Below are positions 4,503 through 49,513 of a stretch of DNA of 64,000 nucleotides, one piece after another; within the stretch, counting starts at the first letter, position 1; every line of letters begins with the position of its first letter. Source of the stretch: an uncultured Bacteroidales bacterium. Its GTDB lineage: Bacteria; Bacteroidota; Bacteroidia; Bacteroidales; Paludibacteraceae. The notes under the pieces are model-generated. The model did not search any database. It saw only the letters and a program-made list of their open reading frames with translations, and was not told the DNA's origin. The DNA is taken from positions 27,997 through 91,996 of the forward strand of contig CAKUUM010000001.1 in NCBI GenBank assembly GCA_934692905.1. Direction: 5' to 3'. A program made the position numbers and the translations under genes.

Positions 4503-5900
4503 TTATCCTTTTTTCAGCATATATACACATTCCGATGCACGTGTCACGGCTGTGTAGAGCCATCGGAGATAGTCGACGGTGTGTTGCTCGGGGGGGACGT
4601 TTCCTGTGTCGATAAATACCCGTTTCCACTGTCCGCCCTGCGCCTTGTGGCACGTGACGGCATACGCAAAACGGACTTGCAATGCGTTGTAGTAGGGTGA
4701 TTTGTAGATAGCCTCCGTCAGTTTCCGCCTGTTGCGTTGCAGTTCTGGATAATCCTCTGATATTCCGACATATAGCGTCTTTTGCAGTTCGTAGTTTGAT
4801 TCCGGCGAGTCTGTATGGAGAGTGTCCAACCACAAGATGACGTCTATCTCCCAATCGTAGTCCAATGCGCGGAGTGAGGCATCCGCGAAGTGAAATCCAT
4901 ACATCTCTCTCTCGTTGCGAAGACGAATGATTTCCATCATATCCCCATTGGCGAGAAAAGGAAGTCCTTCATACTGCTCTGTCCAGAAATAGTTGTTTTT
5001 GCTCACCATGAGCCGGTCGCCGGTTGATATTTCGTCCTCTTTCCAGAGGATGCGCCCGCGCACGCCCTGGTTATATAGATTGGTCCTGCGATTGGTGCGT
5101 GTCAGAATGATGGTCTCTTCTTCCCCCACTTCGCGGTAGGCGCGTTCCAGTTCCTCCAAGAAGTCCTGTCCTGCTAACTCTTGAAAGTCAGCACTATAGA
5201 GCCAATGCTCTTCGGTATCTATGCCCTCGGACAGTTGTTCCCTGAGGCGTGTGGCATTTGCCAAGATGCCGCTGTCGAGGGCTTGACGTGCCACCCCGGT
5301 CAGCGTGTATGTGGTGATGTCCAAGCCGTATCCTGCCATGTATTGCGGGTCCAAAGCAGGTGATAATGAGGAACCTACGGGTGGTAGTTGGGCGTCATCG
5401 CCCAAAAGAAGGAGGCGGCACCCCTCGCCCGCATAAACGTAACTCACCAAATCATCCAACAACATTCCTGTGCCGAAAGCCGATGTGTCGCGTTGCCCCG
5501 AAATCATGGATGCCTCATCTACAATAAATAAGGTGCGCTTGCGCAGATTGTTCGCCAATGTGAAGTCCTCCACACCCAACAGGCGTTGGCGGTAGATGCA
5601 CTTGTGTATGGTGTATGCGGGTTTGCCTGCGTAGCGGGATAAGACTTTGGCGGCTCGTCCCGTGGGTGCCAACAGTATGACGGGCTGCTTGAGTTCGTCC
5701 ATCGCCCGCACCAATGCCGCCATAATACTCGTTTTGCCTGTTCCCGCATATCCCCGGAGGATAAAAGCGGGGCGTTTTTCGCTCTGTGTGTCGTGGCAAA
5801 TAACGAATTGTGACAATAGCGCCAATAACCGCTTCTGCCCCTCGTTGGGAATGAACGGCAAAGCCTGCAGGATTCTATTTTCTATAAATTTCTCTATCAA
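4503..5900 (-). CDS. RecD/TraA-like SF1 ATP-dependent DNA helicase (AAA_30 + UvrD_C_2 type)
   Basis: Walker A GYAGTGKTS, DEASM (Walker B) and the C-terminal YAVTCHKAQGGQW motif typical of RecD-like helicases. Length 465 aa. Confidence 0.9.
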   Translation of the reverse strand: MIEKFIENRILQALPFIPNEGQKRLLALLSQFVICHDTQSEKRPAFILRGYAGTGKTSIMAALVRAMDELKQPVILLAPTGRAAKVLSRYAGKPAYTIHKCIYRQRLLGVEDFTLANNLRKRTLFIVDEASMISGQRDTSAFGTGMLLDDLVSYVYAGEGCRLLLLGDDAQLPPVGSSLSPALDPQYMAGYGLDITTYTLTGVARQALDSGILANATRLREQLSEGIDTEEHWLYSADFQELAGQDFLEELERAYREVGEEETIILTRTNRRTNLYNQGVRGRILWKEDEISTGDRLMVSKNNYFWTEQYEGLPFLANGDMMEIIRLRNEREMYGFHFADASLRALDYDWEIDVILWLDTLHTDSPESNYELQKTLYVGISEDYPELQRNRRKLTEAIYKSPYYNALQVRFAYAVTCHKAQGGQWKRVFIDTGNVPPEQHTVDYLRWLYTAVTRASECVYMLKKG

Positions 5901-6425: not shown

Positions 6426-7871
6426 TTACTCAATCACTTGACCTTGGGCATTGTAACGAGTGCCGTCAATTGTGATAACCAGTTGACCGTTTTCGATTGT
6501 CTTGATAATGTTCTGTGCTTTATTGGCAGCATCCTGTATGTTTGTGGTAGTGCCGTTGCAGATAGTAGCATAGTCGGAGATAGTTGATTCCTTGTAAGTT
6601 ACAGAGATGGCTTGGAATTGGTCATTTCCACTTGTACCGTCCTCTGTTAAAACAACTTCTTTTGCCGAGCCTTCCCGAATATTGTTGGCATTGTCCCATT
6701 TCTCAACATTCGAAGTAAGGGAATTTTCTTTGTTCAGTTTACCTTTGTCATTCTTACTGAAAGTAATTTCTACTTTGGACATTGTAGCCACAGATGAGAT
6801 AGTTAGTGTGCCTTTTGCATAAAGACGGATAGCCGTACCCGAAGTATAGTATTTTGGCTCGTTTTGGGCTTTTGCTTTGGCAAATGTGCAACTTACGTTA
6901 TCATCAATAGCAATTTTTATACCATCAAAACTTTGCCCGTTACTATACTCTTGTTCGCTGAAGTCAATGGTGGCGGTAGTGCTTTCGGTGCTCTCTGCAA
7001 CTAATGCAAAAACTGCGTAGTAGGTGACATCTGTGGTCGGTATGGTGGAAGAAGTTACCCATTTGATGTCGGTGCCGTCTGCATTAACTGTTGACTCCAT
7101 AGCCCAACCAATGAAAGTTTTGGCAGAGCAAGTGCTCGGGACTTCAGGGGTAGCAGGCAATACAACTGCCTCACCATCAATCACCTCTGTAGTGGCTGTT
7201 ACTTTGCCGTTTACACTCCAAGAAATAAGGTTTGCAAGTAGAATCTCGCTACTCAAAGATACAACGACACTCTTCTTGCCACTTGTTAGTGTCAAAGTTG
7301 CCGTGTTTTCGCCCAACGCTTCCATGTCCGGGGTAACGATAATATCGCCACCAGTAGCAGGCAATGTGGTCTTATCCACTATAAATGCGGCTTTGTCGGA
7401 GAGCGTAATGGTGATGTCCTCGGTTAGGTTTTTGCCCGTTACGGTAATCGTTTTCTTGGGTGCTGTGGCATACATTGAGATACTGCCGAAATCAATAGCA
7501 TCTTTAAGGACAGTCAGAACAGGATTGGTATTCTCCGTCCATTTGACGATAGTGCTACCTTCTCCTATTTGCGGTTGATTATAGGTCGACATTGTGCCTT
7601 TTACGACCACTTTGTCCCCCTCTACCAGAGTCAATATATCTTCCAAACCGGACGCTGCATCTGCCGTTCCCTTATATACGTACAGAGTATTTGTGCCATC
7701 GGTAATGGTATAATTGGTAGTGCCACTTGATGCGTATGGTGTTGCCTCGGTTACAGTTCCTGCCACATAGATGTCAGCGGCTGCACCTTTATCCGCATAG
7801 AGTTTCAAAGCCTCGGTCGTAGAATAAGGCAGGTCAGCAGTGCTCTTGTGAAAGCACATAGTCTGTATCAA
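6426..7871 (-). CDS. Surface/secreted repeat protein fragment with an OB-fold-like N-terminal segment and a Listeria-Bacteroides (InlB B-repeat) type domain. It has no signal peptide, so it is probably the 3' part of a disrupted gene.
   Basis: The ORF starts at a TTG right after a stop in its frame. WSVNGKVTATTEVIDGEAVVLPATPEVPSTCSAKTFIGWA...DVTYYAVFA fits the List-Bact repeat pattern. The C-terminus is ...ENGQLVITIDGTRYNAQGQVIE. Confidence 0.55.
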   Translation of the reverse strand: MIQTMCFHKSTADLPYSTTEALKLYADKGAAADIYVAGTVTEATPYASSGTTNYTITDGTNTLYVYKGTADAASGLEDILTLVEGDKVVVKGTMSTYNQPQIGEGSTIVKWTENTNPVLTVLKDAIDFGSISMYATAPKKTITVTGKNLTEDITITLSDKAAFIVDKTTLPATGGDIIVTPDMEALGENTATLTLTSGKKSVVVSLSSEILLANLISWSVNGKVTATTEVIDGEAVVLPATPEVPSTCSAKTFIGWAMESTVNADGTDIKWVTSSTIPTTDVTYYAVFALVAESTESTTATIDFSEQEYSNGQSFDGIKIAIDDNVSCTFAKAKAQNEPKYYTSGTAIRLYAKGTLTISSVATMSKVEITFSKNDKGKLNKENSLTSNVEKWDNANNIREGSAKEVVLTEDGTSGNDQFQAISVTYKESTISDYATICNGTTTNIQDAANKAQNIIKTIENGQLVITIDGTRYNAQGQVIE

Positions 7872-14119: not shown

Positions 14120-14231
14120 CCCGCTAGACCCGCGATAGACCCCCGAGAAGCCCTCGACACAATCTCGTGTCAAGAATAGGTGATTCAGCAAGGGATACGC
14201 AAGGGATGAGCAAGGGATAGGCAACCCATAT
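14120..14231 (+). repeat. Composite intergenic word-array element: GACCCGCGA words, then a CTCGTGTCAA module, then 11-bp GCAAGGGATA tandem words
   Basis: ccgctagacccgcgatagacccccgag ... ctcgtgtcaagaataggtgattca gcaagggatac gcaagggatga gcaagggatag gcaacccatat. Related copies lie at 33430..33603, 18241..18640 (inverted) and 47436..47493 (inverted). Confidence 0.75.
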
Positions 14232-14243
14232 CCACTCTGTTAG

Positions 14244-14315
14244 CCCCCTCTTTCTCGGGGTCCCCATAAGCCCGATAGGGTGAAATGGGGTGAACTTGAG
14301 GGGGCAGGGGGAGTC
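14244..14315 (-). repeat. GC-rich hairpin element, long form (inverted relative to the copy at 45747..45818)
   Basis: The reverse complement gactccccctgccccctcaagttcaccccatttcaccctatcgggcttatggggaccccgagaaagaggggg aligns along its full length with 45747..45818. Confidence 0.8.
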
Positions 14316-14316
14316 T

Positions 14317-15570
14317 TTAATATAGGTAATACTTGCTTGACGCCTCCCTGTATGTCTCCACGTCCTTGTACCAATAATCCTGTACGTCCTCCCAGCGGTA
14401 CCGTTGCCCGAACATCTCACGAATCTTGTTGGTGCCGCACACTTTGTCGAACATGCCGAAGCGACTTTGGTCGCACAGGCTTAACCAGTCCTTGTCGGGG
14501 TACAACCGCATAAGTTCTTGAACGATAAGGAATTGCACCTCGCTCAATCGCGCTTTCTCATAATCCATGATGTGAATCTGCACGCCCTGAATCTGCTCGC
14601 CTTTGAACACGCTGTAGTAGGGCTTGTAGTAAATCGGACGGAAATACAGCCCGGGCAAATCCAAGGCATTCATAGCGTCCGCGAGGCTGTCGGCGTTAAT
14701 CCACGGCGCGCCCATCAACTCGAAAGGCAGCGTGTAGCCCACGCCGATGTTCACGTACCCGAACTCGCCGAAGATGCCCGTCACGGGATAGAAAAGCGCG
14801 GTCTTACCCTGCGGCACATGGGGCGAAGCCACTACCCATTCCAAACCCGTCTCATCCCATGTCATGTCGCGGGTCCAGCCCTCCATTGGCACCACCGTCA
14901 GGCGGCACGGGTGCTCGGCTTGCGCATTCAGGTACAATGCCAACTCGCCGGGCGTCTGACCATATATATAAGGTATCTTGAACTGGCTGACGAACGACAC
15001 ATAGCCGTCCTCCACCAGATTGCCTTCTATCTTGTTGCCCCCCAGCGGGTTCGGGCGGTCCAATACCACCAGTTCCTTGTCGTATTCGGCGCACGCCTCC
15101 ATCAGCATGCCCATCGTGGAGATATACGTGAAACTGCGGCAACCGATGTCCTGAATATCATACACCATCACGTCTATCTCGTCCATCATTTCCTTTGTCG
15201 GCTTGCGCGTAGCCCCATACAGCGAGTACATGCGCAGTCCGGTGCGCTTATCTGTCTCATTACCAACATGATCGCCCGCATGCACGTTGCCTCTTACGCC
15301 ATGTTCGGGACCATACAACGCTACTAAGTTCACATTCTCTGCCTGCCACAGGATATCAATGGTCGAATGCATCTGCAGGTCCACGCCTGTGGGGTTGGTA
15401 CACAGCCCGACACGCTTGCCTTCCAATGGTGCAAAGTTCTGACTTTTAAGCACTTCTATTCCGGGACGTACCACTGACTTTGCAGCAACCTGCTTGCTGC
15501 ACCCCGTCATACCCATCGCCCACGACAGGCATACCGTCAAACTGACCAATACAACTGATTTTTTACTCAT
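14317..15570 (-). CDS. namZ: DUF1343 protein (exo-beta-N-acetylmuramidase NamZ family), lipoprotein
   Basis: MSKKSVVLVSLTVCLSWAMGMTGC signal/lipobox, then GKRVGLCTNPTGV...LYGPEHG...RPNPLGG, typical of DUF1343. The ATG at 15570 is preferred because the track ORF extends into the tRNA-Ser promoter. Confidence 0.85.
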   Translation of the reverse strand: MSKKSVVLVSLTVCLSWAMGMTGCSKQVAAKSVVRPGIEVLKSQNFAPLEGKRVGLCTNPTGVDLQMHSTIDILWQAENVNLVALYGPEHGVRGNVHAGDHVGNETDKRTGLRMYSLYGATRKPTKEMMDEIDVMVYDIQDIGCRSFTYISTMGMLMEACAEYDKELVVLDRPNPLGGNKIEGNLVEDGYVSFVSQFKIPYIYGQTPGELALYLNAQAEHPCRLTVVPMEGWTRDMTWDETGLEWVVASPHVPQGKTALFYPVTGIFGEFGYVNIGVGYTLPFELMGAPWINADSLADAMNALDLPGLYFRPIYYKPYYSVFKGEQIQGVQIHIMDYEKARLSEVQFLIVQELMRLYPDKDWLSLCDQSRFGMFDKVCGTNKIREMFGQRYRWEDVQDYWYKDVETYREASSKYYLY

Positions 15571-15637
15571 ATATTTCTGATGATTAGACCGCAAAGTTAC
15601 GAAAAAAGCGTGATGTGTACAATTTTTCTTGAATTTA

Positions 15638-15669
15638 TTTGCACAATCCAAATTAAAGCAGTACTTTTG
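15638..15669 (+). promoter_or_regulatory. Promoter of tRNA-Ser
   Basis: TTTG (15638..15641), a 20-bp spacer, then TACTTTTG (15662..15669). Confidence 0.55.
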
Positions 15670-15745
15670 CACCCGCTTTCAGGATTGGGACAGCACGCTT
15701 ATGCGCTCCCGATTAACTCATGTAGCACAACGCGTCACGACGCGA

Positions 15746-27884: not shown

Positions 27885-28687
27885 AGTAGAGGGTAGAGAT
27901 TAGAGAAAGGTCAGCAAGATGTTCAGTCGTTGCCTTGCAGACTTTTGTAACATACGTGATAACCAAACCACTTATGCTTGTGATTGTATCAGACAATTCA
28001 AAGATGAACCTTTGAACCCATAAACCTTTTTAACAAACGGCTTATCTTCATAACTTACCTTCTTATGCCAAGATAGAACAATCAACATAGCGGGTTTGTT
28101 CATATCAAAAATACAAAAAAACGAACAAAAACCGCATTTATACGCGCGCGTGCGCGCACGTTCCAAGTTAGACATATATCAGTACTCAGTTCGTATATAT
28201 CAGTTGCACTAATTTTTCAAGACATGGAGTTTGTGGAAAGATATGGATTTTTATACTAATTAGTGATAATACGGCGTAGCCGCCCGTTGATAAGAGAAGT
28301 ACTCGGTAAGGTCTCGGTAACCTCTCGGAAATACGTCATGCCCCGACACTTAAATTCTACACTAACCGCTACTCTATAGCCCCTACTGCTATTCACTACC
28401 CCCTAATCTCTATCCTCTAACCTTTACCCCCCTTAAAAAAGGGTTCAAAGGTTCATCTTTTTTTTACCCATACACTACCCTGCATATACCCACTCTAAAA
28501 ACATAATATACAGATTATTAAATACTTATACATATAATATATAATTATTATATGTAAATATATGTATATTTCATCCTATATATACCTTATATTTTCTATA
28601 TTTTCCATTTTTCCAACATACCCTCTGAAAAAAAGTGAACCCATGAACCGATGAACCTTTCGCACTTGCACATATGAAAAAAAAATA

Positions 28688-41030: not shown

Positions 41031-41429
41031 AAACTCTCGTCAACCTATAAGCCCGCAAAGATACAAAAAAGAATTGAAATAAGCAAATAAATACTGATTT
41101 ATATCGGCGCCATCCCATCAATCCCCGGCATTTCTTGCACTTTTATGGAGACAACGCCTGCCGGAGCCCCATAAACCAATGCCGCTGTCAGGGACGCGGA
41201 CGCCAGCAGGGTCCCCGTAAGCCCGTGGGTGCAACGAGGTGCTCTCTCGTCCGCGGTCAGTTTGGTACAAACTGAATGGATTTACTATGTTTGTGGGGAC
41301 GACGCGTCTCGCGTCGTCAAATCCTTTTTGGACAATAGGGTGTATCTATGTTGCGGGTTGCCAACCTCGCATTTTACGGCTGATTTGTGTTAATACGGCG
41401 TAGCCATCCGTTTAATTCTCGAGCACTCC

Positions 41430-42466: not shown

Positions 42467-43492
42467 ATGAGTGAGGTGTACCACATACCGGCAATGCTGG
42501 AGGAGACGATAAACGGACTGGATATCAAGCCCGAGGGGACGTATGTGGATGTCACCTTCGGCGGAGGAGGTCACTCACGTGCTATCATGAGCAGGCTCGG
42601 GGATACAGGAAGGCTGTTCTCGTTTGACCAAGACATGGACGCATATATAAATGAGAAGACCCCCTCCAACTCCCCCTTCAAAGGGGGAGAGTGCAGATGC
42701 TCGGAATACCCCTCCTTGAAAGAGGGGTCAGGGGAGGTCCATCGGTTGTCTGAAGACAAGCGATGGCAGTTTGTGCATGGTAATTTCCGTTACCTGAGGA
42801 ATTTCATGGACTATTACGGGGTAACGGAGATAGACGGGCTACTGGCTGACTTGGGTGTGAGTTTCCATCACTTCGACGAGGCAGAACGCGGCTTCTCGTT
42901 CCGGTTTGCCGGTCCGCTGGATATGCGCATGAATCGGGAAGGCGGGCGCACCGCAGCCGACATCGTAAACACCTACTCCGAGGAAGACCTGACACGCGTA
43001 TTCCGTATCTACGGCGAGATGAGCAACGCCAAAGCCGTGGCACAGCGGATAGTCAGGCAAAGGGAAAACGCACCCATTCTCCGCACCGAACAATTGGTAG
43101 AATGTGTCATGCGCAATGTGCAATGCGCAATGTGCGATGGTCTTATCGAGGTGCCGACATGGGCAAAGAAAGACTTGGCAAGAATGTTCCAAGCGTTGCG
43201 CATAGAGGTGAACGACGAATTGGGTGCGCTACGAGAGATGCTGCTGGCAGCACGCGAGTTGCTTCGTCCGGGCGGACGGATAGCCATACTGACCTATCAC
43301 TCGTTGGAAGACAGGATTGTGAAAAACTTTCTGCGTTCCGGTAACTTGGACGGCACCATCGAAAAGGATTTCTACGGCAACATACTGACACCCTTCCGAG
43401 TAATAGAAAAAGGGGCTACGGCAAGTGAAAAGGAAGTGGAGCGCAATCCGAGAGCAAGGAGCGCGAAACTGCGGGTGGCGGAGAAACTATAA
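42467..43492 (+). CDS. rsmH: 16S rRNA (cytosine1402-N4)-methyltransferase, carrying two low-complexity inserts
   Basis: MSEVYHIPAMLEETI, GGGGHS, DGLLADLGVS and FQALRIEVNDEL motifs. The ATG at 42467 is preferred over the TTG at 42461. Confidence 0.9.
   Translation: MSEVYHIPAMLEETINGLDIKPEGTYVDVTFGGGGHSRAIMSRLGDTGRLFSFDQDMDAYINEKTPSNSPFKGGECRCSEYPSLKEGSGEVHRLSEDKRWQFVHGNFRYLRNFMDYYGVTEIDGLLADLGVSFHHFDEAERGFSFRFAGPLDMRMNREGGRTAADIVNTYSEEDLTRVFRIYGEMSNAKAVAQRIVRQRENAPILRTEQLVECVMRNVQCAMCDGLIEVPTWAKKDLARMFQALRIEVNDELGALREMLLAARELLRPGGRIAILTYHSLEDRIVKNFLRSGNLDGTIEKDFYGNILTPFRVIEKGATASEKEVERNPRARSAKLRVAEKL
42658..42740. repeat. Inverted pair of short-form GC-rich hairpin elements inside rsmH coding sequence (in-frame)
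   Basis: gaccccctccaactcccccttcaaagggggag ... gaatacccctccttgaaagaggggtcaggggaggtcc. These encode about residues 64-92 (TPSNSPFKGGECRCSEYPSLKEGSGEV). Confidence 0.8.
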
Positions 43493-43935: not shown

Positions 43936-45747
43936 ATGAGTGACAATCTGAAAAATACGATACTGAGGTTCGCAGTCATCTTTGTGGTGATTGTGATGCT
44001 GTTCGGTGTGGTGTTGTTTCAGATAGGCAGGCTACAGACAGTGGAACGCAGTCAGTGGGAGAGCATTGCGGACAAGTTTGAGTCCGTGACCAAGCCCATT
44101 CCCGCAACGCGAGGGAATATCTACGATGCGGACGGACGACTGCTTGCCAGCAGTATCCCACAGTACAGCGTACACATAGACACACGTGTGGAAGCCCTAC
44201 ACATGGACAACGGGAAACTGTTCTGGGAGAATGTGGACTCCATCGCCGAAGGGCTCAGCAGGATTATCGGCGACAAATCGCCGCAGGAGTACAAGCGGCA
44301 GATGGTGACAGCCTACAAGGCGCGCACCAACAGGGAAAGGGATATACGTCTGTACAGGGGACGTATCAGTTACATACAGAAGAAGGAAATCCAGCAGTTG
44401 CCCCTCGTAAGGCGCGGGTACTACAAGAGCGGTTTCCACTATGAAGACCTGCATCGGCGGGTGAAGCCTTTCGGAAGCCTCGGCAGTAGAACCATCGGCA
44501 GTATCTATGGCGAAGGGGGACACGGAAACGCAGGTATAGAGAAGCGGTTTGACGCCTATCTGTGCGGCGAGGACGGCGTAAGTGTTCGGCAACCCGTAGC
44601 GGGAAAATTGCAGTACGTGCCCGTGAAAGACGCGGTGAACGGCTGCGATGTCTATACCACCTTGGACGCCAACCTGATGGACATCTGCGAAACGGCGTTG
44701 CGTCAGCGGCTGAACAAGACGGAAGCCGATTGGGGTTGCGTCGCGCTCATGGAGGTATCAACAGGCGAGATAAAGGCGATGTGCAACCTGGACAGAGCCG
44801 AAGACGGTACGTACTATGAGGCAATGAACCACGTGGTGTCGCGCGTGGAGCCCGGTTCCACGTTCAAAACCATCGCGCTGATGGCGGCATTGGACGACGG
44901 CAAGATTGACATCGATGACACGGTGGAAGTATATCGCAAAGGGTGGACCTACTACAACGCCCGACATACCGACTCGCACCCGCGAGATACGGTGTACAGC
45001 ATCCGCAACGCGCTGGCGGTGAGCAGCAACATCGCCATGGCGAAGATAATCACCGAGGGTTACAAGGGCAGCGCACGCAAGTTCGTGCACAAGTTGGACC
45101 GTATGGGACTGTTGGACAGCGTGGACTACATCATCCCGGGTGCCGACCAGGCGCGTATCGACATCCCCAACGACACGGTGACCATCTCGCGCATGTCGTA
45201 CGGCTATTCGGTGGAGATGAGTCCGATGCAGACTATGCTGTTCTACAACGGCATTGCGAACGGGGGTAAGATGATTTCGCCTGTGCTTGTGCGTGAGGTT
45301 CGGAAGAACGGCAAGACGATAAAGACATACCAGACGGAGACCATCGAGAGCAGTATATGCGGGTCGTCCACGCTGCGCGACATACAATCGTGTTTGCATG
45401 ACGTGGTGTGGGACAACCATTTAGGTACGGCGTCGGTGAACCCGTGGAAGATGAAGAAAGCCCAAAGCGACTTGGTGCATATCGCGGGCAAAACGGGCAC
45501 GGCGCAGTTGTTTGAGAAAGGACGGTACCAGAGCCACAGGCACCGTATGTCGTTCGTGGGGTATTTCCCCGAGGAGAACCCGCAATACACATGTATATGC
45601 GTGATTAGCGGTCCGAAATACTACGGGTATTACGATGCGGGTATGGACTGCGGCTCGGTGGTCCGGCAGATAGCCGAGAAGACGATGGTATATGCGGCGG
45701 AATATGTGATTGAGAACGGGGAGAAGGTTCTGCAAATCAAGAATTAA
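43936..45747 (+). CDS. ftsI: Penicillin-binding protein 3 type transpeptidase (FtsI)
   Basis: N-terminal TM; SxxK (PGSTFKT), SxN (VSSNIAM) and KTG (AGKTGTAQ) motifs. Confidence 0.9.
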   Translation: MSDNLKNTILRFAVIFVVIVMLFGVVLFQIGRLQTVERSQWESIADKFESVTKPIPATRGNIYDADGRLLASSIPQYSVHIDTRVEALHMDNGKLFWENVDSIAEGLSRIIGDKSPQEYKRQMVTAYKARTNRERDIRLYRGRISYIQKKEIQQLPLVRRGYYKSGFHYEDLHRRVKPFGSLGSRTIGSIYGEGGHGNAGIEKRFDAYLCGEDGVSVRQPVAGKLQYVPVKDAVNGCDVYTTLDANLMDICETALRQRLNKTEADWGCVALMEVSTGEIKAMCNLDRAEDGTYYEAMNHVVSRVEPGSTFKTIALMAALDDGKIDIDDTVEVYRKGWTYYNARHTDSHPRDTVYSIRNALAVSSNIAMAKIITEGYKGSARKFVHKLDRMGLLDSVDYIIPGADQARIDIPNDTVTISRMSYGYSVEMSPMQTMLFYNGIANGGKMISPVLVREVRKNGKTIKTYQTETIESSICGSSTLRDIQSCLHDVVWDNHLGTASVNPWKMKKAQSDLVHIAGKTGTAQLFEKGRYQSHRHRMSFVGYFPEENPQYTCICVISGPKYYGYYDAGMDCGSVVRQIAEKTMVYAAEYVIENGEKVLQIKN

Positions 45748-45818
45748 CTCCCCCTACCCCCTCAAGAGCACCCCACTTCGCCCTGCGGGGCTCGTAGGGA
45801 CCCCGCTACAGAGGGGGA
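45747..45818 (+). repeat. GC-rich hairpin element, long form (reference copy), between ftsI and murE
   Basis: actccccctaccccctcaagagcaccccacttcgccctgcggggctcgtagggaccccgctacagaggggga, homologous along its full length to the reverse complement of 14244..14315. Confidence 0.8.
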
Positions 45819-45856
45819 CACAAAAGTAAAATGAAGGATTATTAAACGATAATTAT

Positions 45857-47389
45857 ATGAAACTAAGTGAGTTGCTGAAAGGTGTGGAGGTGCTGCAAAC
45901 CGTGGGCAGTACGGATGTGGAGATACAGAGTATCCAGTTCGATTCGCGACGCGTGGATGAGGGCGATGTGTTCGTAGCCCAACGCGGCACCAGCGTGGAC
46001 GGACATACGTTTATCGCACAATGTATCAACCAAGGGGCAGTAGCCATAGTCTTGGAAGACAAGAACTATATCCGACTCCCCCAACCCCCTCAGGGAGGGG
46101 GCTCAACAAAGCAGGCACCTGATGTTACCTATATATTAGTAAAGAACAGCGATGAAGCCCTTGGCAGAATGGCACACACATGGTACGGGGAGCCGAGCAA
46201 GCACCTGCGGTTGGTGGGTGTGACAGGCACCAACGGCAAGACCACCACCGCCACCCTGCTCTACCGTCTGACAAAAGCCATGGGACACAAGGCAGGACTG
46301 CTCTCGACGGTCGTCAATTACGTGGACGACGAAGCCGTAGAGGCTACGCACACCACGCCCGACGCGTTGGAACTCAACGGGTTGCTGCACCGCATGGTAG
46401 CGGCAGGGTGCGAGTACGCCTTCATGGAGGTCAGCAGCCACGCCATCGCGCAGGAGCGCATCGCGGGCTTGGAGTTCGCGGGGGCGTTGTTCACCAACCT
46501 CACACGCGACCACCTCGACTACCACAAGACCTTCGACAACTACCGCGACACGAAGAAGAGGCTATTTGACGGGCTTCGCAAAGAGGCATTTGCCGTTACG
46601 AACCTGGATGACAAGAACGGGCTGGTGATGACGCAAAACTGTCGGGGTCACGTCTTCACGTATTCGACACGCGGCATGGCGGACTTCCGCGGGAAGATAC
46701 TTGAGGAAGGGTTCGACGGTATGCTGCTCCGCATACAGAGTACACAAGGGGCAGTGGACACCGAGGTATTCGTGCCGCTGGTGGGGCGTTTCAATGTGAG
46801 CAACCTGCTGCTGATATACGGTGCGGCTGTGGAACTCGGTTTCGACCCCATGGAGGTGCTGCGCATATTGAGTGGGCTGCACCCCGTGAACGGACGCTTC
46901 GAGACCATACACGCCCCGCAGGGCTGGACGGCGATTATTGACTACGCCCACACGCCCGATGCGGTGGAGAATGTGCTCCGTACCATCAACGAGATAATAT
47001 CGTCCACGGCGGGCAAGCGCAAAGAGCCCGCACAGGTGATTACGGTGGTCGGCTGCGGCGGCAACAGGGATAAGGGCAAGCGTCCGATGATGGCACGAAT
47101 TGCTTACGACCGGAGTACGCAACTGATACTGACCTCCGACAACCCCCGCGACGAGGAGCCCGCAGCCATTCTGCAAGACATGGCGGCAGGTCTGACGGAG
47201 GACGAACTGCGGCACGTGCTGATTATCGAAGACCGTGCGTCCGCCATCAAGACCGCCTGCACCATTGCACGCGACGGCGATGTGATACTCGTTGCCGGCA
47301 AGGGGCATGAGGACTACCAGATAATCAAAGGGGTGAAGCACCATTTCGACGACCATGAGGTGGTGAGAGGGTGCTTGATTGTTAAGTAA
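45857..47389 (+). CDS. murE: UDP-N-acetylmuramoyl-L-alanyl-D-glutamate--2,6-diaminopimelate ligase
   Basis: GVTGTNGKTTTA P-loop and the DNPR motif (TSDNPRDEEP) typical of MurE. Confidence 0.95.
   Translation: MKLSELLKGVEVLQTVGSTDVEIQSIQFDSRRVDEGDVFVAQRGTSVDGHTFIAQCINQGAVAIVLEDKNYIRLPQPPQGGGSTKQAPDVTYILVKNSDEALGRMAHTWYGEPSKHLRLVGVTGTNGKTTTATLLYRLTKAMGHKAGLLSTVVNYVDDEAVEATHTTPDALELNGLLHRMVAAGCEYAFMEVSSHAIAQERIAGLEFAGALFTNLTRDHLDYHKTFDNYRDTKKRLFDGLRKEAFAVTNLDDKNGLVMTQNCRGHVFTYSTRGMADFRGKILEEGFDGMLLRIQSTQGAVDTEVFVPLVGRFNVSNLLLIYGAAVELGFDPMEVLRILSGLHPVNGRFETIHAPQGWTAIIDYAHTPDAVENVLRTINEIISSTAGKRKEPAQVITVVGCGGNRDKGKRPMMARIAYDRSTQLILTSDNPRDEEPAAILQDMAAGLTEDELRHVLIIEDRASAIKTACTIARDGDVILVAGKGHEDYQIIKGVKHHFDDHEVVRGCLIVK
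46074..46101 (+). repeat. Short-form GC-rich hairpin element inside murE coding sequence (in-frame)
   Basis: gactcccccaaccccctcagggagggggc. It encodes about residues 73-82 (RLPQPPQGGG). Confidence 0.75.
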
Positions 47390-47435: not shown

Positions 47436-47493
47436 TGTATGGGTTGCGTATCCCTTGCTCATCCCTTGCGTATCCCTTGCTGTTTGACACGAG
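47436..47493 (-). repeat. GCAAGGGATA word array (inverted copy) between murE and mraY
   Basis: Reverse complement: cctcgtgtcaaaca gcaagggatac gcaagggatga gcaagggatac gcaacccatac. Confidence 0.75.
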
Positions 47494-48840: not shown

Positions 48841-49350
48841 ATGGATATGGAACAGGACGCGGGACGGCAGCACTACAAGCAGGTGATATATGATATCATC
48901 GGTGCGGCAATGGAGGTGCACAGGACATTGGGTTGGGGATTGCTGGAACCTGTATATCAAGAGGCATTGTACTTGGAACTGCAAAGCAAAGGTATTGATT
49001 GTCAGAGGGAACAAGAGATAGAAATAAGGTACAAGCAATACGTATTGGATAAGAAATACAGGGCGGACTTGATAGTGGGCGATGTAATAGTGGAGTTGAA
49101 GTCTGTGTGGCAGATACTGGGCGAACATCGTGCGCAGTTGTGTAATTATCTGCGGCTTACCAAGAAACCTTACGGAGTATTGATTAACTTCGGGGAGCGG
49201 AGTCTGGCAGGAGAGCGGTGGCAATACGACCCGCTGACAAATGAGTGCACGTTGATAAACAAGAACATGGAGCCGGTTATATCGGACGATTACCGGTTTG
49301 AGCGGTACGATATACAGACAAACAAGACTAAGGAAGAAATTAATGAATAA
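48841..49350 (+). CDS. GxxExxY family protein (PD-(D/E)XK nuclease-like fold), inserted in the dcw cluster
   Basis: GWGLLEPVYQEALYLEL contains the GxxExxY signature. RADLIVGDVIVELK fits a D...E.K nuclease-type motif. 169 aa. Confidence 0.8.
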   Translation: MDMEQDAGRQHYKQVIYDIIGAAMEVHRTLGWGLLEPVYQEALYLELQSKGIDCQREQEIEIRYKQYVLDKKYRADLIVGDVIVELKSVWQILGEHRAQLCNYLRLTKKPYGVLINFGERSLAGERWQYDPLTNECTLINKNMEPVISDDYRFERYDIQTNKTKEEINE

Positions 49351-49513
49351 TTATACGGATAATTATATGTTCTAATGATAAAATTAATGATTAATTATAT
49401 GGGCAATTACATGTTCCCATAATGGAATTAATGGTTAATTATACGGGTAATTATATGTTCTTATAATGAAATCAATGAACAATCACATGGGTAATTACAT
49501 GTTCCCATAACAA
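49338..49513 (-). repeat. 4 x 44-bp tandem repeat of the 'taattaaccattaat' element (inverted orientation) between the GxxExxY gene and murD
   Basis: Units start at 49338, 49382, 49426 and 49470, an exact 44-bp period. Example: aattaatggttaattatacgggtaattatatgttcttataatga. The first unit overlaps the last codons of the GxxExxY ORF. Confidence 0.85.

Follow-up and report, generated by a model that had tools for sequence, protein, structure and literature searches.

Intrastrand triplex motifs that are rich in G/C have been described as BoxC (Bergler 1992) and as PIT elements (Hoyne & Maher 2000, 2002), their three blocks reading C-C-G (class III) or C-G-G (class II) (PMC4666352). Holder et al. 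(2015) reported that the motif abounds in over 260 genomes and that one member, from E. coli, forms a triplex in vitro; copies were always intergenic in E. coli and were tied to local variability or instability and to small deletions (PMC4666352). Although BoxC/PIT/TMECO have been known since 1992, their origin, spread and function are unexplained. Here we analysed 64,000 nucleotides from an uncultured Bacteroidales bacterium (the window: positions 27,997 to 91,996 of contig CAKUUM010000001.1, assembly GCA_934692905.1), through which copies of a GC-rich C-box/C-box/G-box repeat, with a short form of 27-30 bp, are scattered, some of them in frame in essential genes. Judged from its sequence, the design of this repeat is that of the published class II/III G/C-rich intrastrand triplex motif, of which it is a new Bacteroidales variant. 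The variant has two unusual properties, the in-frame colonization of essential genes and a nested, loop-seeking core. Motifs of the same type flank genes of the nuclease family DUF559 in an ordered orientation, and we propose, giving the idea an even chance, that the window repeats are a triplex-type family of non-autonomous relatives of the ends of a DUF559 unit, in a manner resembling REPtrons.

Triplex-type design of the window repeats

The window has a GC content of 52.5%, encodes a Bacteroidales small signal recognition particle RNA and contains the division and cell wall (dcw) cluster (mraZ, rsmH, ftsL, ftsI, murE, mraY and others). The strict pattern CCCCCTNCCCCCTC, with no more than one mismatch, was matched three times in the window against 0.05 expected, and a regular expression for the architecture (C4+, 1-4 nt, C4+TC, 3-50 nt, GAG4+, both strands) gave six matches in the 64 kb (16278, 45750, 46078, 63750, 42709-42734(-) and 14244-14311(-)) and none across 60 first-order Markov simulations. 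Besides these six there are an rsmH copy with swapped boxes and two degenerate copies. The copies and their parts are as follows.

45747..45819, + strand: long form A, which starts on the final A of the TAA that ends ftsI (45745-45747), from sequence reading and folding; third box CTCCCCC (45748-45754), spacer TA, 5' arm CCCCCTC (45757-45763), 47-nt loop (45764-45810; AAG plus the core of ~44 nt), 3' arm GAGGGGG (45811-45817).
45767..45810, + strand: core in long form A, defined by the comparison of long and short forms at orthologous sites, boundaries uncertain by ~2 nt; predicted hairpin CCCCAC..GTAGGG around a mini-hairpin GCCC-tgcg-GGGC.
14244..14315, - strand: long form B, inverted, with ends and core matching long form A; it starts 1 nt past the stop codon (14317-14319) of a NamZ-like gene, 14317-15672(-).
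46075..46101, + strand: murE short form, in frame, peptide LPQPPQGGG; ACT-CCCCC AA CCCCCTC AGG GAGGGGG.
16274..16304, + strand: ribF short form, in frame, gene on the - strand.
16237..16272, + strand: degenerate tandem copy beside the ribF short form, boxes decayed.
42660..42689, + strand: rsmH copy 1, sub-type b, in frame; third box CCCCCTC, spacer CAA, hairpin CTCCCCCT-TCAA-AGGGGGAG.
42709..42737, - strand: rsmH copy 2, sub-type c, inverted; the + strand reads CCCCTC-CTTGAAA-GAGGGG TCA GGGGAGG.
63747..63775, + strand: short form in an lpxB-like gene, in frame, gene on the - strand, peptide SPSLRGAGG.
41195..41255, + strand: core-only copy, ~41-nt core at 41205-41245 between arms CGCGGACG (41195-41202) and CGTCCGCG (41248-41255).

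All copies reported in an initial annotation of this DNA were found at or within a few bases of the positions given there, and long forms are intergenic and short forms intragenic, as it had described. Where it had placed two tandem short forms, at 16237..16303, the copy at 16274..16304 stood and the one at 16237 proved badly degenerate. An nhmmer profile built from the short forms recovered the same window copies and added none. The lpxB-like reading frame, which had been taken as interrupted, is open across the element to the end of the window. We also considered whether runs of C and G merely resemble each other by chance, or whether the copies are low-complexity coding sequence of the ordinary Pro/Gly-rich sort. 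The boxes are indeed simple in sequence and the intragenic copies encode Pro/Gly-rich peptides, but the excess over simulation (six copies against none), the occurrence of the same DNA in different frames and orientations and also in non-coding DNA, and the lack of the insertions in orthologues together refute it.

Each repeat is composed of a 7-bp hairpin, CCCCCTC/GAGGGGG, and a third box, 2-3 nt away, that is the mirror of the pyrimidine arm. It had been suggested in the initial annotation that the single G-box could pair with either C-box to give alternative hairpins. However, GAGGGGG exactly complements C-box 2 alone, of which C-box 1 is the mirror image, and this mirror relation is kept in three local sub-types (CTCCCCC with CCCCCTC, CCCCCTC with CTCCCCCT, and CCTCCCC with CCCCTCC); the alternative hairpin reading was dropped in favour of a mirror (third-strand) rule, within which the order of the boxes is conserved as first described. 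Since C-box 1 mirrors the hairpin arm, as an intrastrand triplex needs, it is the predicted third strand and not a pairing partner. On the G-rich strand, which in the window short form is a 27-mer of CCCCCTCTCTGAGGGGGTAGGGGGAG type, the hairpin is followed by GGGGGAG(T), and this is the purine-motif arrangement.

The published ITxF definition describes three consecutive blocks with stems of 6-15 nt, a third block that suits a Hoogsteen or reverse-Hoogsteen third strand by mirroring an arm with no more than one mismatch, and loops of 1-6 nt (PMC4666352). The third block matched at 7/7 positions in the copies at 45747, 14315, 46075, 16275 and 63747, and sub-types b and c also mirror. Loops are 2-3 and 3-4 nt in the short forms, 7 nt in rsmH copy 2 and, for the second loop of the long forms, 47 nt. 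The hairpins are stable in computed Watson-Crick folding, and the in vitro proof of a triplex concerns the E. coli TMECO only. The window repeats share with BoxC/PIT/TMECO a series of three adjacent G/C-rich blocks, which read C-G-G (class II) or C-C-G (class III) depending on the strand, as well as loops that are short in the short forms, many copies per genome, occurrence as singlets and inverted pairs, and a patchy distribution among relatives. They differ in sequence and in stem length (9 nt in TMECO, 7 nt here), in the nested core of the long form and in placement, TMECO having been reported in Proteobacteria and always between genes in E. coli, whereas the window repeats lie in frame inside genes at five of nine sites. 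The TMECO consensus, CCCTCNCCC N3-6 GGGNGAGGG N3 GGGNGAGGG, had no match in the window and one, as a positive control, beside E. coli ycjD. The initial annotation had recognized no named element; the architecture is in fact a published one (BoxC, PIT, TMECO), although the Bacteroidales sequence family is not named in PMC4666352.

An exact-pattern scan of one genome per species, covering 185,579 species genomes, gave at least 120 loci. These further copies, with their box order conserved, are what the initial annotation had made the existence of its family depend upon. There were at least 140 motif instances in the listed loci, often several per genome, and the taxa among the matches listed include Bacteroidales, Geobacter, Desulfuromonadaceae, candidate phyla radiation groups, Planctomycetes, Acidobacteriota, Burkholderiales, Chloroflexota and others. 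Among the listed copies there are also full palindromes, in which a third box stands on either side.

Nested core and differences between related genomes

For comparison we used related contigs, L121-L125 (~57 kb; L121 is also P0003 and L124 also P0002). The window copies are genuine insertions that differ between related genomes, since relatives carry empty, short-form or long-form versions at the same sites. In the ftsI-murE spacer the window has the long form, L121 and L122 have the short form in exactly the same place, and L123 has a 9-nt spacer without an element; in the mraY-murD spacer L121 carries the long form, L124 the short form and L123 is empty. The insert in the variable loop of murE is absent from most orthologues; murE of L121 has two tandem copies that are read in two different frames, and that of L124 an unrelated AT-rich insert at the same site. 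The inverted pair in rsmH is found in the window and, diverged, in L125, and L121 and L123 are without it. Residues 231-277 of RibF are an insertion relative to the T. maritima protein (1MRZ), and in other Bacteroidales genomes short forms occur inside open reading frames (ORFs) of 459-1461 aa. Presence or absence at orthologous loci was the comparison asked for by the initial annotation; the dispersed family, similar to repetitive extragenic palindromic (REP) sequences or miniature inverted-repeat transposable elements (MITEs), that was suspected there is also supported. The in-frame copies add about 9-10 Pro/Gly-rich residues, and copies persist where they are harmless, either immediately behind a stop codon or, with the frame kept, in variable loops of proteins. 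The extragenic placement expected of a REP/REPIN family was not seen, as copies lie in frame in murE, rsmH (two), ribF (two) and lpxB; in all, intragenic copies make up five of nine sites and six of ten copies, in both orientations.

Another possibility is that the motifs are structural or regulatory signals selected by the host, such as terminators, attenuators, mRNA stabilizers or recombination hot spots, and kept for their effects on neighbouring genes. Both long forms do start 0-1 nt past the stop codon of an upstream gene and lie in its sense orientation, and their computed hairpins are stable, but terminator and promoter scans revealed nothing at either long form, with no T-tract or terminator-like signal present, and one long form lies within the dcw operon between ftsI and murE. 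Such a role is also at odds with the copies inside coding sequences in both orientations, with the empty orthologous sites of relatives and with the lack of promoter or terminator activity of PIT elements in E. coli, as cited in PMC4666352. Rfam covariance models gave no match in the window at the gathering score, and nothing meaningful at E<=10 around 45600-46000. We therefore consider host-selected signals quite improbable.

The long form, of 72 bp, has the ends of the short form and ~44 nt more in the hairpin loop, as seen at two orthologous sites (ftsI-murE, long in the window and short in L121; mraY-murD, long in L121 and short in L124). On the G-rich strand the extra segment always lies directly 5' of TGA or TTGA. 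Four copies of the core align with a mean column identity of 74%; in the core helix, CCCCNN...NNGGGG, 95.8% of cells are paired and two of the six pairs change on both sides (AU/GC and CG/UA exchanges). The fourth core copy, at 41205-41245 of the window, is in the loop of an unrelated hairpin, CGCGGACG/CGTCCGCG, and an empty version of this 41195-41255 hairpin, with the loop CCCT, is present at L124 3684-3725 and L125 7702-7743. The core was found in the loops of three different GC-rich hairpins. Because it also sits in an unrelated hairpin loop, the core can be regarded as a separable element, and a nested composite is the better reading of the long form: from the alignments it is a short form with a separable, structured core in its loop. 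At each site the core may have been gained or lost. The initial annotation had seen the short form as a long form with its core deleted, which does not fit a separable unit of ~44 nt also found in an unrelated loop; its degenerate core-only copy near 41200 is a core inside a different hairpin and not a decayed long form.

A search for the core pattern among viral contigs gave only chance matches in high-GC coding DNA. IS1397 and ISKpn1 target the loops of palindromes of the REP and bacterial interspersed mosaic element (BIME) type. The presence of the core in hairpin loops is the same kind of loop-targeted nesting, but unlike these insertion sequences the core is only ~44 nt long, non-coding and without an identified transposase.

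Several other features were noted at these sites. The 41195-41255 hairpin belongs to a second hairpin family, ACGCGGACG-loop-CGTCCGCGGT, which is filled with the ~41-nt core in the window and empty in the copies of L124 and L125. An unrelated AT-rich GAATTAAGAATTATGAATTAGGAATTGC-like repeat is present in the sister lineage (L124 1978-2103 and 2270-2420; L125 5993-6121), where it occupies the ftsI-murE spacer and the murE loop, two sites that hold C/G-box elements in the window; permissive or targeted sites thus seem to be shared by the two. Between mraY and murD the window has a small gene of PD-(D/E)xK fold (48841-49350, +; PDDEXK_3, 1e-37; GxxExxY family TIGR04256, 4e-39) followed at 49340-49510 by AT-rich tandem repeats of ~55 nt; at the same site ~220 nt with triplex-type elements as its boundaries is found in L121 and L124, and the spacer is missing from L123. 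A triple GCAAGGGAT(A/G) repeat (CAGCAAGGGATACGCAAGGGATGAGCAAGGGATAGGCAACCC) lies beside long form B (14186-14230) and, inverted, downstream of murE (47440-47480), and also in the murE-mraY spacers of L121 and L124.

Ordered association with DUF559 genes

Six DUF559 genes (Pfam E = 1e-16 to 1e-20) were listed among the motif-selected loci, from Muribaculaceae, Bacteroidales, Geobacter, Desulfuromonadaceae, Saccharibacteria and one unassigned genome, and all six lie 0-169 nt from a motif. The association was also approached from the side of the gene, with 80 metagenome loci picked by DUF559 protein similarity alone. By eye, most of these are flanked by [hairpin][spacer][G-rich third box] upstream and by [C-rich third box][spacer][hairpin] downstream. 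A strict detector, run on 55 of the loci, found an upstream hairpin with G-box at 21 (2 of 483 background windows) and a downstream C-box with hairpin at 24 (0 of 483), and the third box faced the DUF559 gene in 12 cases against 4 upstream and in 19 against 1 downstream. In the sampled clade, which spans several phyla, the DUF559 flanks are inverted copies of triplex-type motifs, also in the case of E. coli ycjD.

The flanks also allowed the third strand to be assessed, with the register chosen on G positions only and a direct register as control. Opposite the A residues of the purine arm the third box had T 136, A 42, G 35 and C 12 times, against A 68, G 66, T 42 and C 39 in the control. This bias follows the T.A:T / A.A:T rule for third strands of the antiparallel purine motif and differs from the outcome of a simple duplication. 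A Bacteroidales DUF559 unit (L021) has boxes near-identical to those of the window repeat, ACTCCCCCCGGCCCCCTC-TCAA-GAGGGGG, and at a site that holds three solo elements in L021, two further loci (L132 and L139) have a DUF559 unit. Complete DUF559 units, flanks included, are embedded in frame within ORFs of 1252-1388 aa that have restriction-modification or methylase motifs. On a viral contig of 52% GC (L256), DUF559 is flanked by a lower-GC version of the design, upstream CCTCCCTT-GTAA-AGGGAGG, a spacer hairpin and GGAGGGA, and downstream the mirror arrangement; the design is therefore not restricted to C5/G5 boxes. DUF559 has the fold of a Vsr-like PD-(D/E)xK nuclease (profile matches to PDB 3HRL, 1.7e-31, to the homing endonuclease I-Bth0305I, 3R3P, 2.8e-5, and to PvuRts1I). 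Residues D56, E67, D69 and H73 of DUF559 are invariant in an alignment. PADLOC placed DUF559 in no known defence system, with weak similarity to PvuRts1I-like enzymes and DpdF.

We propose that [hairpin][third box]-DUF559 gene-[third box][hairpin] may constitute a unit, of whose ends the solo repeats would be non-autonomous relatives. The DUF559 nuclease would recognize the folded single-stranded motif and would start its copying or insertion in trans, in parallel with the action of REP-associated tyrosine transposases (RAYTs) on REP sequences in REPtrons. The logic of REPtrons and REPINs is matched in that a small gene is bracketed by inverted structured repeats that are also dispersed non-autonomously; the bracketed gene, however, is a PD-(D/E)xK Vsr-like DUF559 here and an HUH/Y1 transposase in REPtrons. 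Compared with REP/BIME, the window repeat has a third, mirror-symmetric box and tolerates coding regions, and any transposition by DUF559 is putative. I-Bth0305I, a homing endonuclease of the Vsr-like (EDxHD) kind, belongs to a phage group I intron (PDB 3R3P; PMC3239194). Its catalytic fold is related to that of DUF559, which indicates that a Vsr-like fold can serve a selfish DNA element; it is encoded in an intron and has extra DNA-binding domains, whereas DUF559 units are free-standing genes of ~120 aa with structured inverted flanks.

It might be argued that the repeats form a REP/REPIN family of the classical kind, mobilized by a RAYT (HUH tyrosine transposase) whose gene lies in another part of the genome. 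Like REPs and BIMEs, they are short palindromes rich in GC and are found both singly and in inverted pairs. A conserved 5' GTAG-type head is a feature of REPs, but none is apparent in the repeats, although no formal test was made, and most window copies are intragenic, unlike REPs. The gene found beside such motifs is DUF559 and not a RAYT, and no RAYT was noticed beside any copy examined, the loci having been searched for DUF559 only. We regard this explanation as very improbable.

The main rival to the DUF559 proposal is that the repeats arise or spread without DUF559, for example through replication slippage, template switching or repair at structure-prone DNA, and that DUF559 is a selfish or homing gene that landed in or beside them or was kept there. 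Solo copies far outnumber DUF559 genes (six among at least 120 motif loci and none at 46 viral loci), DUF559 is related to a true homing endonuclease, Holder et al. tie such motifs to local instability and small deletions (PMC4666352), and a Desulfuromonadaceae locus (L063) has messy 220-nt tandem duplications around its motifs. However, the two DUF559 flanks, if joined, would give [hairpin][G'][C'][hairpin], whereas solo copies take the form [C'][hairpin] or else [C'][hairpin][G']; the arrangement is highly ordered, with the third box gene-proximal on both sides; and the sequence type of the flanks varies between DUF559 loci while the design is kept. We consider spread without DUF559 unlikely, but less so than the other alternatives.

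A number of observations weigh against our proposal of DUF559 mobilization. Searches by tblastn and by HMM of six-frame translations found no DUF559 in the window or in L121-L125; as there is none between inverted motifs in the window, the copies there can be no more than non-autonomous relatives. In many cases the inverted repeats around DUF559 reach past the triplex module, so that solo copies of 27-30 nt cover a unit end incompletely. Among viral contigs 46 carry the motif, none with DUF559 nearby, and most of the distant, phage-borne DUF559 genes have no such flanks. Many DUF559 loci are related by descent and the counts overstate the number of independent events. In conspecific contigs (96.7-99.98% identity) the elements are identical, with no within-species polymorphism and hence no sign of recent movement. 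TAAC flanks the element on both sides in L121 only; flanks elsewhere could not be aligned, and there is no consistent target-site duplication. Finally, Holder et al. (2015) did not detect the triplex in vivo and found no mobility genes near the E. coli copies (PMC4666352). That study mentions no DUF559 association, and in the literature searched on DUF559, ycjD, Vsr-like nucleases, and palindromic/MITE and triplex repeats we found no link of DUF559 to such repeats.

E. coli ycjD and comparison with other elements

In E. coli K-12, ycjD is a DUF559 gene. A degenerate motif lies across its stop codon, there is a remnant of the 3' end of a second ycjD, and an exact match to the TMECO consensus is found 167 nt downstream; BoxC itself was first reported in a paper on envM/fabI, the neighbour of ycjD (Bergler 1992). 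A wider reading, towards whose rejection we lean slightly, is that DUF559, a very large family of uncharacterized Vsr-like nucleases to which YcjD belongs, is the dedicated enzyme of a widespread and hitherto undescribed class of selfish elements that end in triplex motifs, and that BoxC/PIT/TMECO of enterobacteria and the Bacteroidales repeats are their non-autonomous offspring. If true, the compactness and frame neutrality of these elements would let them survive inside essential genes, and they would represent a REPtron-like system built on a different nuclease fold that recognizes a three-stranded DNA structure. The oriented association with DUF559 provides a concrete candidate that can be tested, also in E. 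coli, and suggests a first function for DUF559/YcjD. The in-frame colonization of murE, rsmH, ribF and lpxB bears on annotation, on protein evolution and on the choice of strain or species markers.

The ycjD region was contiguous in 3,346 of 5,426 E. coli genomes, a survey that was set aside as evidence on mobility, about which it says nothing (one non-contiguous genome was checked). In that genome, one of ~2,080, from E. coli O157:H7 (L207 1-3646), a resistance-nodulation-division efflux operon and a copy of IS1203 adjoin fabI; K-12 has the ycjD-BoxC region beside fabI, where L207 has the efflux operon.

Rickettsia palindromic elements (RPEs) are ~100-150 bp long, AT-richer and confined to Rickettsia. 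Like the window repeats they are palindromes that lie in frame in protein-coding genes, essential ones among them, and supply short peptide segments at permissive sites, but there is no similarity in sequence or architecture and RPEs are without the triplex design. Compared with MITEs, the window element is itself a hairpin, and pairs of the form [box][hairpin]...[hairpin][box] occur in rsmH and in the mraY-murD spacer of L121 and L124. In such pairs, [third box][hairpin]-spacer-[hairpin][third box], the third boxes are outermost, the reverse of the arrangement around DUF559; they are located at window 42660-42737, L121 7447-7480 with 7585-7659, and L124 5265-5300 with 5427-5453, the two halves being 19 nt apart in rsmH and ~125 nt apart between mraY and murD. 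In the Desulfuromonadaceae metagenome-assembled genome (L063 2756-4260), three 220-nt tandem duplications stand beside an intact DUF559 gene and an hsdR-like gene, each containing two triplex-type elements together with an hsdS-like gene's 3' end and what is left of a DUF559 5' end.

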